Both the position numbers and the translations under genes were made by a program. DNA of 64,000 bases from Candidatus Omnitrophota bacterium (lineage in GTDB: Bacteria > Omnitrophota > Omnitrophia > Omnitrophales > JACROU01), in NCBI GenBank assembly GCA_029261035.1, contig JAJDCD010000023.1:237126-301125 (forward strand), read 5' to 3'. This document shows positions 42,242-62,684 of this stretch, piece after piece. The first letter of the stretch is position 1, and every line of letters begins with the position of its first letter. The notes under the pieces were generated by a model. That model did no database searches, was not told the DNA's origin, and saw nothing but the letters and a program-made list of their open reading frames with translations.

Positions 42242-42408
42242 GTCATCCCGTACTTGATACGGGATCCAGTGTCTTTATCTTTTCTTTAATCGTCATTGCG
42301 AGGCGTCGAACAAAGAGCCGCGGCAATCTCAGGATTTTGAATAAGAATGGAAGATGCCCATTTTCTTGAGATTGCCGCAGCTTTTTTGTCAAAGCTTCGC
42401 AATGACAG
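42242..42408. repeat. Intergenic modular repeat cluster: module A (GTCAT, hairpin, ATCCAGTGTCTTT) followed by two inverted copies of module C (GTCATTGCGAG...GCGGCAATCTCAG)
   Basis: 42242-42276 gtcatcccgtacttgatacgggatccagtgtcttt. 42292-42338 gtcattgcgaggcgtcgaacaaagagccgcggcaatctcaggatttt. 42368-42408 is the reverse-orientation copy. Related copies are at 59104-59283, 61234-61272 and 62592-62684. Confidence 0.6.
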
Positions 42409-42734
42409 ATTTAGAATTATGTTTAGGGTTTTTGCTGATAGCTTAAAGCTAAATAGAAAACGCCAAAAATTTAGATAATTATTTCTTGGCCTTGTGCGGG
42501 ATGGTTTTCATCTTAACTCCTTATGTGGTTCCGGACATGTCTTTCAAATAACTTCGGGCCCCATAGGATTAAGAAGTTTTGCCTTTATGACAACTGATTA
42601 TCCTCGCCGCCATTGAATTGCTATCTAAGTTTTTGGCGTTTTCTTATTTTCTATTTCTAATTATGTTTCTATAAAAACTCTAACACATCCTCACAACTTT
42701 ACTAGTCGATGTCTTACAAAAAAATTTTAAGGAG

Positions 42735-43181
42735 TTACACGTTTACAATTTCTCCGGCCTCTGTGATTTGAAATGAGCGGTTTCCTGTAACATTAACTTG
42801 TTGGGGAGACGCCGTAATGGTGTAAGTGGCTTGAGTTACATTAGATAACGCAAAGTTGTATCCTTGTCGTGAGCCGCTTGTCAGTGCAGTATCGCAAAAG
42901 GGAGGATTACTGGAAGAAAGAGCCCCCAAGGTTATGGGATAGCCCGTAAAGATAATTCGATATTGTTCCATAGCTTGTCTTAATGTATTTAGAGCTGTCT
43001 GAGCTCCTGTTTCATTGGCTGTAACTCGGGCGCTTCTGAAATTGACGAAAGACACAACGACCACAATAGCAATGATAGAGAAAACCACAATAATTTCCAG
43101 AAGAGTAAAACCTTTTTTGCTTTTGCTATGTTTTCGACTCCAAAATTTTACAAACACTGCGAGCGCCTCCGTAAGTAGCAT
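42735..43181 (-). CDS. Type IV pilin / T2SS pseudopilin-like protein (N-terminal prepilin methylation motif)
   Basis: 148 aa. KKG/FTLLEIIVVFSIIAIVVVVSF is the class III signal (G-F-T-L-x-E plus a hydrophobic helix). The leader is longer than usual, and the true start may be the in-frame GTG giving VFVKFWSRKHSKSKKG. Confidence 0.7.
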   Translation of the reverse strand: MLLTEALAVFVKFWSRKHSKSKKGFTLLEIIVVFSIIAIVVVVSFVNFRSARVTANETGAQTALNTLRQAMEQYRIIFTGYPITLGALSSSNPPFCDTALTSGSRQGYNFALSNVTQATYTITASPQQVNVTGNRSFQITEAGEIVNV

Positions 43182-43432
43182 CCTTATTAAACCAGCTCTA
43201 TATATAAATTTAACACAAATATGGACGACACAAAAATTTAAGCTATATAACTTTCTAAACAGAGCATGATTAGTATATCGCCCTAATAAGTAGAAACTTT
43301 AAACCTGAATAATCGTAAATCACTATAAATAAAGGGCTTAAGTTGTTTATTTAATTTAGAGTAAGACAGCTTTCAGAAACGTCCTATAATTACTTGTTTA
43401 TATTAAAAGGGTGCTTGAAATTTCAGAGTTAA

Positions 43433-61272: not shown

Positions 61273-61416
61273 GTTTGTCCTAATCCCTTAGGCAGAGGAA
61301 GCTCTTTGCTAAAGGCCTCTTTTTGCCCCCAATCCTCCTATGTGTTAGGCTTCTTTAAAGAGGTCTGTACTGTTCTTTGAAACGAGTTTAAACGCATAAA
61401 AAGGGAGGTTCGTCCT

Positions 61417-62547
61417 ATGTTTTCGCATAAAGAAATAGAACGTTTGGGCCATATGGAGCATTTAGAAACCCCTATGGTGAGTTGCTACCTTAGCTTTACA
61501 TCAAGTAATCAGTGGAAAAAAGAACTAGAAATAAACCTGAAAGATTGCATTAAAGAAGGTAAAGAAAAACTTGGAAAGTTTCGCTTATCAGAAGATGATC
61601 ACGGATTTTTAAGTACTGATTTAAATCGAGTTAAACACTACTTTGATGACTATCAACGAAATGGGGAACGTGGTGTTATCGTATTCAGTCATGCAAAAAA
61701 AGATTTTTTCTTAGCTAAACCTATTTACCACCCCATCCATAATCGTGTTGTTATTGATTTTGATATTTACTTAAAACCCCTTATGAATTTGTTTCAGCAA
61801 AATAGAAGATATTGTGTTGTTTGTGTCAGCCAGAAAAAAGCCCATGTCTTTGAATTTTTTATGGGACATTTGGAGCGGCAAGAGGAAATTTTTGATGTAA
61901 TTCCTAAAAAAGTAAAATCCGGTGGATTTCATGGTTATGAAGGGAAAAAAATTGAGAGGCACAATCATGAAGAGGTTCGGCACCATTTTAAAACAGTGGC
62001 AAATAAAGCCTTTGAGTTATTTATGCAGGATCATTATGAAGATTTGATTTTAGTGGGAGAACAACACACTGTTAAAGAGTTTGAAACAAACCTCCACTCT
62101 TACTTGAAAGAACGTGTTGTGGGGCGCCTCCATTTAAATCCAGAAACGGAGCTTTCTGCGATTAAGGGAATGGCACAAATCATGGAGAGTGATATTAAGA
62201 GAAAAAAGGATTACCAGATTATTGATCAGCTAATGACCTCAAATCATGAGAAAGGCCTTGGTGTAATCGGCCTAAGCGGAGTGCTTAGAGCTTTGGAACG
62301 AGGAAGTGTTCAACGTCTGATTGTGTCCGAGGACTATTCTCAACCTGGATGGATGTGTTTTGACTGCTCTGTTCTTCGTGCGGATGGGTCTCAGTGCCCT
62401 ATGTGTGGAAAGGAGCTGACTCTTATTCGAGATATTGTGAATCAAGCAGTAGAAGAAGCCATTCATCAAAGAGCTCAAGTGCATCACTTAGCTCCTGATA
62501 TTCCAATTCCAGAACATATTGGAGCACTTCTTCGATTTGCTGTTTAA
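61417..62547 (+). CDS. eRF1/Pelota-fold protein (bacterial eRF1-like) with GGQ changed to GGF and a C-terminal CxxC...CxxC zinc ribbon
   Basis: 376 aa. The segment KKVKSGGFHGYEGKKIERHNHEEVRHHFKTVANKAFELF aligns with the eRF1 domain 2 GGQ-loop region ([30 protein letters not shown]). The domain 3-like segment is GLSGVLRALERGSVQRLIVSED. Zinc ribbon CFDC...CPMCG. Confidence 0.6.
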   Translation: MFSHKEIERLGHMEHLETPMVSCYLSFTSSNQWKKELEINLKDCIKEGKEKLGKFRLSEDDHGFLSTDLNRVKHYFDDYQRNGERGVIVFSHAKKDFFLAKPIYHPIHNRVVIDFDIYLKPLMNLFQQNRRYCVVCVSQKKAHVFEFFMGHLERQEEIFDVIPKKVKSGGFHGYEGKKIERHNHEEVRHHFKTVANKAFELFMQDHYEDLILVGEQHTVKEFETNLHSYLKERVVGRLHLNPETELSAIKGMAQIMESDIKRKKDYQIIDQLMTSNHEKGLGVIGLSGVLRALERGSVQRLIVSEDYSQPGWMCFDCSVLRADGSQCPMCGKELTLIRDIVNQAVEEAIHQRAQVHHLAPDIPIPEHIGALLRFAV

Positions 62548-62591
62548 AACATCGAAGTCAGAATTCAGAGGACTGAAGTCTGAAAAAGTCT

Positions 62592-62684
62592 GTCATCCCC
62601 GCGAAAGCGGGGATCCAGGTTTAATAAAGGATATAAAGGTATTTTAAGACCTTATGGATTCCCGACAAAAGATTTCGGGAATGA
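62592..62684. repeat. Intergenic modular repeats A and B
   Basis: 62592-62623 gtcatccccgcgaaagcggggatccaggttta (module A with a compensatory stem ccccgc/gcgggg). 62655-62684 ggattcccgacaaaagatttcgggaatgac (module B). Confidence 0.55.

Follow-up and report, generated by a model that had tools for sequence, protein, structure and literature searches.

Probable NTS/SRM-type DNA hairpin repeats between the genes of an Omnitrophota genome

Background

In Neisseria, a 28-nt oriented hairpin named NTS (CGTCATTCCCGCGMAVGCGGGAATCYRG), which includes the dRS3 repeat, is recognised by SsnA, a single-domain GIY-YIG protein of 94 amino acids (aa) that binds the hairpin as single-stranded DNA (ssDNA) only and cleaves a few nucleotides upstream of it (Chenal et al., Nat Commun 2025, PMC11893778). 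Here we describe nine short intergenic hairpin repeats, most of them headed by GTCAT, in DNA of a Candidatus Omnitrophota bacterium (assembly GCA_029261035.1, contig JAJDCD010000023.1, positions 237,126 to 301,125 of the forward strand), and compare them with the NTS and with other families of bacterial repeats. The complete stretch of 64,000 nt is called the window below, and positions are counted from its first letter.

The founding case of the family is the Neisseria dRS3/NTS repeat, which was generalised to "Ssn-related motifs" (SRM) of the form HGTCWYN(0-2)YYVSBRHN(0-5)WNVSBRGN(0-2)RNCYNB (PMC11893778). Those members of the Ssn family from Neisseria and Wolbachia that were tested cleave these hairpins as single-stranded DNA, and no RNA binding was seen for N. 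meningitidis SsnA, in which Y6, Y17 and E64 are the residues that were mutated (PMC11893778). Mutagenesis showed that cutting depends most on the three bases that precede the palindrome, and binding on the C just after it (PMC11893778). The ssnA genes are typically flanked by the motif, and in N. meningitidis the system modulates transformation (PMC11893778).

One hairpin architecture in four intergenic regions

Reading of the region and pattern scans of the 64-kb window revealed nine copies, spread over four gaps between genes. We consider these copies likely to be DNA hairpin repeats of the NTS/SRM family, the solo and doublet copies being gene-less relatives of SRM-ssnA-SRM units. A previous sequence-only reading of the same DNA had located repeats in all four intergenic regions, where we found them as well, but had sorted them into three modules, A, B and C. 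These modules are variants of one architecture, namely (T)GTCAT, hairpin, ATC(C/T). Because module B, if read on the minus strand, is GTCAT-TCCCGA-loop-TCGGGA-ATCC and hence follows the module-A plan with another stem and a longer loop, the three types represent one scheme and not three unrelated modules. Module C has the layout GTCAT-TGC-GA-[free stem-loop-stem]-GYG-GCA-ATCTC, in which a TTGC/GCAA outer stem encloses a free inner stem. The final A/T of GTCAT opens the stem, and the C of the 3' ATC(C/T) stands directly after the palindrome. GTCAT...ATC is present in eight of the nine copies, the exception being the headless copy at 59097-59126.

Three copies occupy the first gap (42236-42734): one A-type and one C-type copy lie on the plus strand, and a second C-type copy is inverted. 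Its A-type copy, GTCAT-CCCGTA-CTTGA-TACGGG-ATCCAG (42242-42269, +), is a canonical SRM (regex match 42241-42269), with the stop codon of a 2631-aa gene 7 nt before it. The C-type copies GTCATTGCGAG-N-GCGGCAATCTCAG (42292-42332, +; a regex match in our pattern scans, 45.9 bits with the C-type covariance model R1) and 42365-42406 (-; 54.4 bits) form the left and right halves of a doublet. The sequence-only reading had described these two copies as head to head; they are in fact convergent, with the GTCAT heads pointing outward and the tails facing each other.

In the second gap (59065-59516), an A-like perfect palindrome, CTGGGTCCCGGC-TCGG-TGGCCGGGATCCAG (59097-59126), is followed by a minus-strand B-type copy (59142-59198) and a plus-strand C-type copy (59238-59277; 45.5 bits). 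In the palindrome, the left arm CTGGGTCC, which replaces GTCATCC, is the mirror image of the right arm GGATCCAG, and since the GTCAT head is missing, no strand can be assigned to this copy. GTCAT plus hairpin, as stated earlier for module A, therefore holds at 42242 and 62592 only and not at 59.1 kb. The B-type copy, GTCAT-TCCC...GGGA-ATCCAG, again a regex match in our scans, has a long, partly degenerate loop that contains GTCGCCTGCCTGCCG.

The third gap (61215-61416) carries a single C-type copy (61232-61272, -; 48 bits), a solo copy 18 nt past the DUF6178 gene. The fourth (62548-62753) harbours a convergent doublet of mixed type: its left half is the A-type copy GTCAT-CCCCGC-GAAA-GCGGGG-ATCCAG (62592-62618, +), a canonical SRM (regex match 62591-62618) that closely resembles the Neisseria NTS, and its right half is the B-type copy GTCAT-TCCCGA-AATCTTTTG-TCGGGA-ATCCAT (62654-62685, -).

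The placement of the copies is not random. Intergenic DNA accounts for 8.1% of the window, yet all four clusters, with all nine copies, are intergenic (P ~4e-5), and four of six gaps are occupied to the right of 42 kb compared with 0/25 to the left (Fisher P = 5e-4). The base composition of the window gives no sign of an island. Run over the window with filters off, the C-type covariance model retrieved only the four known C copies, the next-best match having E >= 1; as all four copies were included in its training alignment, their match is partly by construction. Regex and structure scans of the window yielded no additional A- or B-type copies.

Comparison with the SRM pattern and with Neisseria repeats

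With the GTCAT head, the semi-palindromic hairpin and the ATC(C/T) tail, the copies share the build of the SRM, and two of them fit its regular expression exactly. These two matches, 42241-42269 and 62591-62618, are the only ones in the window, where 0.05 would be expected according to 100 dinucleotide shuffles. Conservation here falls on the bases that mutagenesis identified as critical, namely GTC ahead of the palindrome and, behind it, the C of ATC. Also shared is the clustered intergenic distribution, here beside very large genes and in Neisseria beside membrane-protein genes, and elsewhere copies bracket single-domain GIY-YIG genes of 94-98 aa that are homologous to the gonococcal SsnA ortholog (see below). 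The differences are that the host belongs to the Omnitrophota, that the window contains no ssnA, and that three stem classes coexist in single gaps. Furthermore, both the B type, owing to its loop of >=9 nt, and the C type, with its TTGCGAG...GYGGCAA outer stem, internal mismatch and free inner stem, are not covered by the published search pattern. This pattern is narrow, for it also missed 21 of 25 clean A/B-like hairpins from other loci, and it appears to cover only part of a much larger family.

The Neisseria dRS3 repeats and NIMEs have terminal ATTCCC...GGGAAT inverted repeats, and the B copies of the window likewise read ATTCCC-N-GGGAAT; the mosaic intergenic arrays with shuffled units are common to both as well, and the headless copy at 59097-59126 resembles those dRS3 copies that are not NTS. 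However, the dRS3 definition ATTCCC-N8-GGGAAT does not apply here: the B core is N13 (62654-62685) or longer, the arms of the A and C types are CCC/GGG or TTGC/GCAA, and the phylum is a different one.

The family as such was already described in 2025 as NTS/SRM, so that the find is mostly explained. What goes beyond that description is the C type outside the published pattern and the REPIN-like doublets. In addition, a well-defined set of SRM/NTS-like repeats is now placed in the Omnitrophota, an uncultured phylum, and beside giant genes.

Covariation and folding of the stems

Covariation of the C type was evaluated in a MAFFT alignment of 104 sequences with 500 shuffles. All six base pairs of the inner stem show changes on both sides, and 179 double-change cells were counted vs 65.5 +/- 6.4 in the shuffled alignments, none of which reached 179. 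The covariation score of the inner stem amounts to 0.303, compared with 0.108 after shuffling (0/500 reached the observed score) and 0.04-0.08 with slid partners; in an independent register test, 65% of the pairs were Watson-Crick in register vs 28% when permuted. The inner stem is thus different in sequence almost everywhere while its complementarity is kept. The compensatory stem changes proposed from the sequence alone are borne out by these data, as is the view that the copies are not inert duplications, since sequence varies and structure is conserved. The outer stem and the flanks of the C type are invariant by construction of the search pattern; one outer-stem position alternates between G-T (75 sequences) and G-C (28 sequences).

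The A copies and the short B copy form good ssDNA folds, with z-scores of -3.3 to -6.1: 42242-42269 reaches -7.3 kcal/mol (z -3.95), 59097-59126 -13.9 kcal/mol (z -6.1) and 62592-62618 -11.1 kcal/mol (z -4.9), and for 62654-62685 z is -3.3. The long B copy (59142-59198) has no advantage in folding over its shuffles (z +0.5). The convergent C pair 42292-42332 and 42365-42406 forms a hairpin of 128 nt with -34.4 kcal/mol (z -7.7).

GIY-YIG genes bracketed by copies

In 1.36 Mb of bacterial loci that were fetched, five GIY-YIG genes or pseudogenes were found (loci L012, L088, L021, L174 and L189). Each of the five is flanked by copies at a distance of no more than ~60 nt, upstream on the strand of the gene and downstream in inverted orientation. 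The GIY-YIG open reading frames (ORFs) of L012, L088 and L021, the last one frameshifted, were detected with phmmer and are flanked by C-type copies; the gene of L174 is tightly bracketed by C-type copies, and the frameshifted gene of L189 by the A-like copies GTCATCCTGAAC...GTTTCAGGATC. Both intact proteins of ~98 aa that were scanned match Pfam PF01541 only, and NCBIfam holds no specific model for these GIY-YIG proteins. An unbiased clustering of ORFs <=300 nt from C-type copies in 191 loci uncovered no recurrent transposase or recombinase family; the sole recurrent nuclease-like neighbour of the copies is the GIY-YIG nuclease gene.

The protein of L174 (94 aa) aligns without gaps over 94/94 positions with its single N. 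gonorrhoeae homolog (49% identity, E 1e-33). The latter, according to the chromosome record, is a 94-aa ORF with Y6, Y17 and E64 that lies among 17 NTS copies in 3.3 kb. By this similarity, the L174 protein belongs to the SsnA family (cd10448), and its homology to the gonococcal, NTS-embedded SsnA argues for the C type as an SRM class of its own. Proteins with 74-83% identity to that of L174 carry labels of four phyla (Endomicrobia, Deferribacteraceae, Heliobacteriaceae and Gastranaerophilales). Among the matches listed when GIY-YIG proteins served as queries, Oscillospiraceae-like and termite/gut-like relatives predominated, and none came from the Omnitrophota. Many such GIY-YIG genes are located on contigs of 0.5-1 kb, in the manner of repeats.

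A further arrangement is seen in gut metagenome contigs (L198-L207), where ssnA (2001-2291) resides inside an array of C-type hairpins with a period of 126 bp, whose copy number varies among samples. Between strains, the compensatory change GCCAC/GTGGC to GTCAC/GTGAC is found in every unit of the array. On either side of this ssnA stands a giant FliD-like gene (~2,900 aa and up to ~6,000 aa, respectively), the two being convergent, a context that parallels that of the repeats in the window; the giant-gene setting thereby echoes both this gut bacterium and the NTS clusters at surface-protein genes of Neisseria.

Distribution across bacteria and viruses

The C-type pattern GTCATTGCGA-N12-28-GGCAATCTC was scanned against 185,579 species genomes. 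At least 120 genome stretches hold at least 145 copies, which belong, by their record titles, to more than 20 phylum-level groups, among them CPR lineages, Chloroflexota, Bacillota, Bacteroidota, Planctomycetota, Pseudomonadota and one metagenome-assembled genome (MAG) of the Omnitrophota. The window copy 42292-42332 represents the subfamily GTCATTGCGAG-N6-AACAAAG, also present in the nearest relative (locus L122, see below) and in a Berkelbacteria MAG (L018); a metagenome scan for this subfamily returned 71 stretches and added the cases L174 and L189. It also yielded six stretches from the contig of the nearest relative, all of them devoid of a GIY-YIG gene. C-type copies are also frequent in viral and prophage contigs of IMG/VR (at least 120 stretches, L208-L327).

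Neighbouring copies are oriented non-randomly. Among all pairs <=120 nt apart in the fetched loci, 41 of 71 are convergent, 19 tandem and 11 divergent, where 25% convergent, 50% tandem and 25% divergent would be expected (convergent excess P = 5e-9). The three pairs of the window are all convergent, the same arrangement as around ssnA.

The nearest relative

In public records, the homologs of the window's DUF6178 protein (59517-61214) bear the label Candidatus Omnitrophica or Omnitrophota. The best one (60% identity) is encoded on a JGI contig of 2.17 Mb, Ga0315338_1000003, which is syntenic with the window: its gene order is giant gene, DSHCT helicase, DUF6178, 158-aa ORF, baeRF_family10, CDF transporter and giant gene, the 158-aa ORF being absent from the otherwise matching order of the window. 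Contigs identical to the window were found only as short Logan contigs of 1.5 kb (SRR15505518 and SRR15505516). The orthologous gaps of the relative also hold members of the family, with other stems and once in opposite orientation, namely a C-type copy in the gap of L122 that corresponds to 61232-61272. About 30 copies of all three types were found in 71 kb sampled from Ga0315338_1000003, in stretches that had been chosen for containing a copy. One of them, in L142 at 3810, is a near-twin (GTCATCCCCGAAATCTTTTGTCGGGGATCC) of the B copy 62654-62685.

The relative also carries four doublets of 91-99 nt that share a common spacer of 41 nt, in three cases with A-type ends and in one with B-type ends; their similarity ends exactly at GTCAT and ATGAC. 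The proposal that modules are mixed and matched agrees with these doublets, which argue for duplicative spread and for exchange between copies. Such sharp-ended multicopy doublets offer a concrete substrate for asking whether Ssn nucleases mobilise their own sites.

The palindrome CGCCTGCCTGCC(GGCAGGCAGG) is nested in the loop of the B copy 59142-59198 as well as in a C-type copy of the relative (L122, 7742-7804), which suggests that one hairpin element was inserted into another. The inner hairpin CCCGTACTTGATACGGG of the A copy 42242-42269, if extended by one C-G pair (CCCCGTACTTGATACGGGG), equals the inner stem of a C-type copy from the Dehalococcoidia (L005, 1586-1625), and the CTTGAT-loop hairpin of this A copy recurs in L122. 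This hairpin core is employed within different outer frames across phyla.

Proposed mechanism and points against it

According to our proposal, the GTCAT strand, whenever it becomes single-stranded during replication, transformation or conjugation, would fold into the hairpin and, together with the flanks, be bound by a single-domain GIY-YIG Ssn nuclease of ~95 aa. The nuclease would place a nick in the ssDNA, a few nucleotides to the 5' side of the motif, and would not accept the complementary strand as a substrate. As it is the pairing and the flanks that are preserved, the stems would be free to diverge through compensatory changes. The nuclease genes themselves would be enclosed by convergent copies (SRM, ssnA, inverted SRM), and the solo copies and gene-less convergent doublets of the window could represent non-autonomous relatives of that unit, comparable to the relation of REP/REPIN to RAYT. 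In a convergent pair, each strand would have a single functional site, positioned towards its 5' side; as only the GTCAT strand is expected to serve as substrate, cuts are predicted at the outer borders of the unit. We infer that this Omnitrophota genome has a cognate Ssn which cuts its copies, and that the cutting would result either in selfish spread or, as described for Neisseria, in control over ssDNA that enters the cell. Given that 81% of the genomes with >200 SRMs encode an SsnA homolog (PMC11893778), such a partner nuclease is likely, but not certain.

Several observations weigh against this assignment. Seven of the nine copies (the B and C copies and the palindrome) fall outside the SRM regex, and single C copies fold weakly as ssDNA (z +0.1 to -1.9). 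Motif searches and phmmer detected no GIY-YIG ORF in the 64-kb window, nor was one found in the 71 kb sampled from the contig of the nearest relative or in 1.04 Mb of viral contigs with C-type copies. Alteration of the palindrome abolished the activity of N. meningitidis SsnA even when the hairpin was kept (PMC11893778), so that three stem classes would imply several enzymes or relic copies. Finally, the flanks of 12 doublets are without direct repeats, so that no target-site duplication was seen, and mobility is therefore deduced from copy number and sharp ends only.

A more far-reaching idea is that the C-type hairpin (GTCATTGCGAG - free stem - GYGGCAATCTC) constitutes a distinct Ssn/SRM specificity class missed by the published pattern, which spreads horizontally across more than 20 phyla and viral contigs and whose gene-less doublets are moved in trans by a GIY-YIG ssDNA nuclease. 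We put this forward tentatively and regard it, as a whole, as rather doubtful. If true, Ssn would be the core of a GIY-YIG-based analogue of REP/RAYT and more than a modulator of transformation. The C type is common in many phyla and brackets SsnA homologs in the manner of the NTS, which suggests further enzyme/site specificities of interest as ssDNA tools.

Alternative explanations

The sequence-only reading had left the choice between a miniature mobile element, a recombination site and a family of small structured RNAs. The first of these, understood as a mobile element or recognition site of a protein, comes closest to our findings, whereas the RNA option found no support. Elements acting at the RNA level could be structured small RNAs, or hairpins in 3' untranslated regions that terminate transcription or stabilise mRNA. 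Such a role would fit with the covarying hairpins, with the G-T/G-C alternation in the outer stem, as G-U wobble would give, and with the position of several copies just past stop codons (42242 after the 2631-aa gene, 61232-61272 after DUF6178 and 62592 after baeRF); the palindrome 59097-59126 is also terminator-like. Yet Rfam 15 returned nothing real at the gathering threshold or at E <= 1, the best hit being a spurious miRNA model with 31 bits vs a threshold of 135 bits. The conserved 3' flank is ATCCAG or ATCTCAG without a T run, and a simple scan classified only one of the nine copies as terminator-like. Moreover, both orientations occur inside one gap, the motif adjoins unrelated genes across more than 20 phyla and also occurs in viral contigs, and SsnA of N. 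meningitidis binds its motif as ssDNA and not as RNA (PMC11893778). We therefore judge an RNA-level function unlikely.

Also quite unlikely, in our view, are REP/REPIN-type repeats, i.e. hairpins spread and maintained by a domesticated tyrosine (Y1/HUH) transposase of the IS200/IS605 type (RAYT). The resemblance is considerable: in both cases, short oriented extragenic palindromes with an asymmetric 5' head form multicopy inverted (here convergent) doublets that fold into long hairpins, the clusters look like BIMEs, a single-copy enzyme gene is bracketed by repeats, and hairpins are recognised in ssDNA. The heads of described REPs are GTAG-like tetranucleotides and not GTCAT. The enzyme differs as well, as it is a GIY-YIG nuclease instead of a Y1/HUH transposase: the window lacks a transposase-like ORF, the 191 loci with C-type copies show no transposase family recurring nearby, a RAYT was found in none of the loci examined, and all five GIY-YIG genes of the fetched loci are bracketed by copies. 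The analogy to REP was drawn by the authors of the Ssn study themselves (PMC11893778), and we retain it as an analogy to NTS/SRM repeats.

Alternatively, an integrating phage or a site-specific recombinase could use the copies as target or recombination sites, in the way that dRS3 is reported to be the target of a specific phage recombinase in Neisseria (PMC11893778). The abundance of C-type copies in IMG/VR contigs would be in line with this. However, no integrase, recombinase or prophage genes were found in or beside the four gaps, nor does any recombinase family recur near copies elsewhere; besides, this would be a secondary use that leaves the origin of the repeats unexplained. This renders the recombination-site explanation very improbable.

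DNA uptake sequences (DUS) are fixed 10-12-mers. That the copies serve as DUS for the neighbouring ComP-like type IV pilin (42735-43181), an adjacent ORF which indeed matches Pfam ComP_DUS, is hardly credible, given that their stems are variable, that the motifs also occur in lineages without this pilin, and that only nine copies, all intergenic, are found in 64 kb, whereas DUS are often intragenic (34% in N. meningitidis; PMC11893778).

Two further classifications were considered and rejected. MITEs such as the Correia elements resemble the 91-99-nt doublets of the relative in being small, free of genes, present in many copies and sharply bounded by inverted ends, but a target-site duplication at the doublet ends is lacking here, the ends are hairpins and not simple terminal inverted repeats, and no transposase partner is known. 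For an integron-like arrangement, the defining features are missing.

Gene context of the window

The repeats at 42.3 kb lie between two giant ORFs on the plus strand, 34340-42235 (2631 aa) and 43433-57073 (4546 aa), which have a common N-terminal region of ~480 aa (32% identity, E 5e-55). In both ORFs, an (A/S)(A/S)SLG motif recurs, SLG occurring 7 and 13 times vs 1.2 and 2.0 times expected from composition; by its appearance, this motif marks linkers or processing sites that separate modules. With Pfam, the 2631-aa ORF shows NUDIX and DUF218 and no other domain, and the 4546-aa ORF none at all. Also between the two giant genes, and beside the 42.3-kb repeat cluster, a gene for a type IV pilin with a ComP_DUS-type domain (Pfam) is encoded on the minus strand (42735-43181); a similar pilin adjoins the helicase gene in locus L124. 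The pilin is a hint that this lineage may have pili or be competent, which would be of relevance if Ssn acts on incoming ssDNA.

The gene for a DSHCT (Ski2-like) helicase adjoins the DUF6178 gene in the window (57082-62547 for the region) and in the loci L122, L124 and L126 from Omnitrophota relatives. A baeRF_family10 (eRF1-like) gene follows at close distance in both the window and L122, and after ~10 kb in L124; the 12.7-kb contig L126 contains none. Judged by this neighbourhood, helicase, DUF6178 and baeRF_family10 may constitute a functional module.

Within positions 1-34000, the window encodes the gene set of a replication origin, with dnaA (9378-10763, -), dnaN, DciA, gyrB, gyrA, parA/parB, mnmG, yidC and rnpA. 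The coding strand flips at ~28.4 kb and the cumulative GC skew has its minimum at 26-28 kb, so that the replication origin is probably located inside the window. At the strand-switch point itself, a gene pair for a HigB-like toxin and an HTH antitoxin is found (28457-29036).

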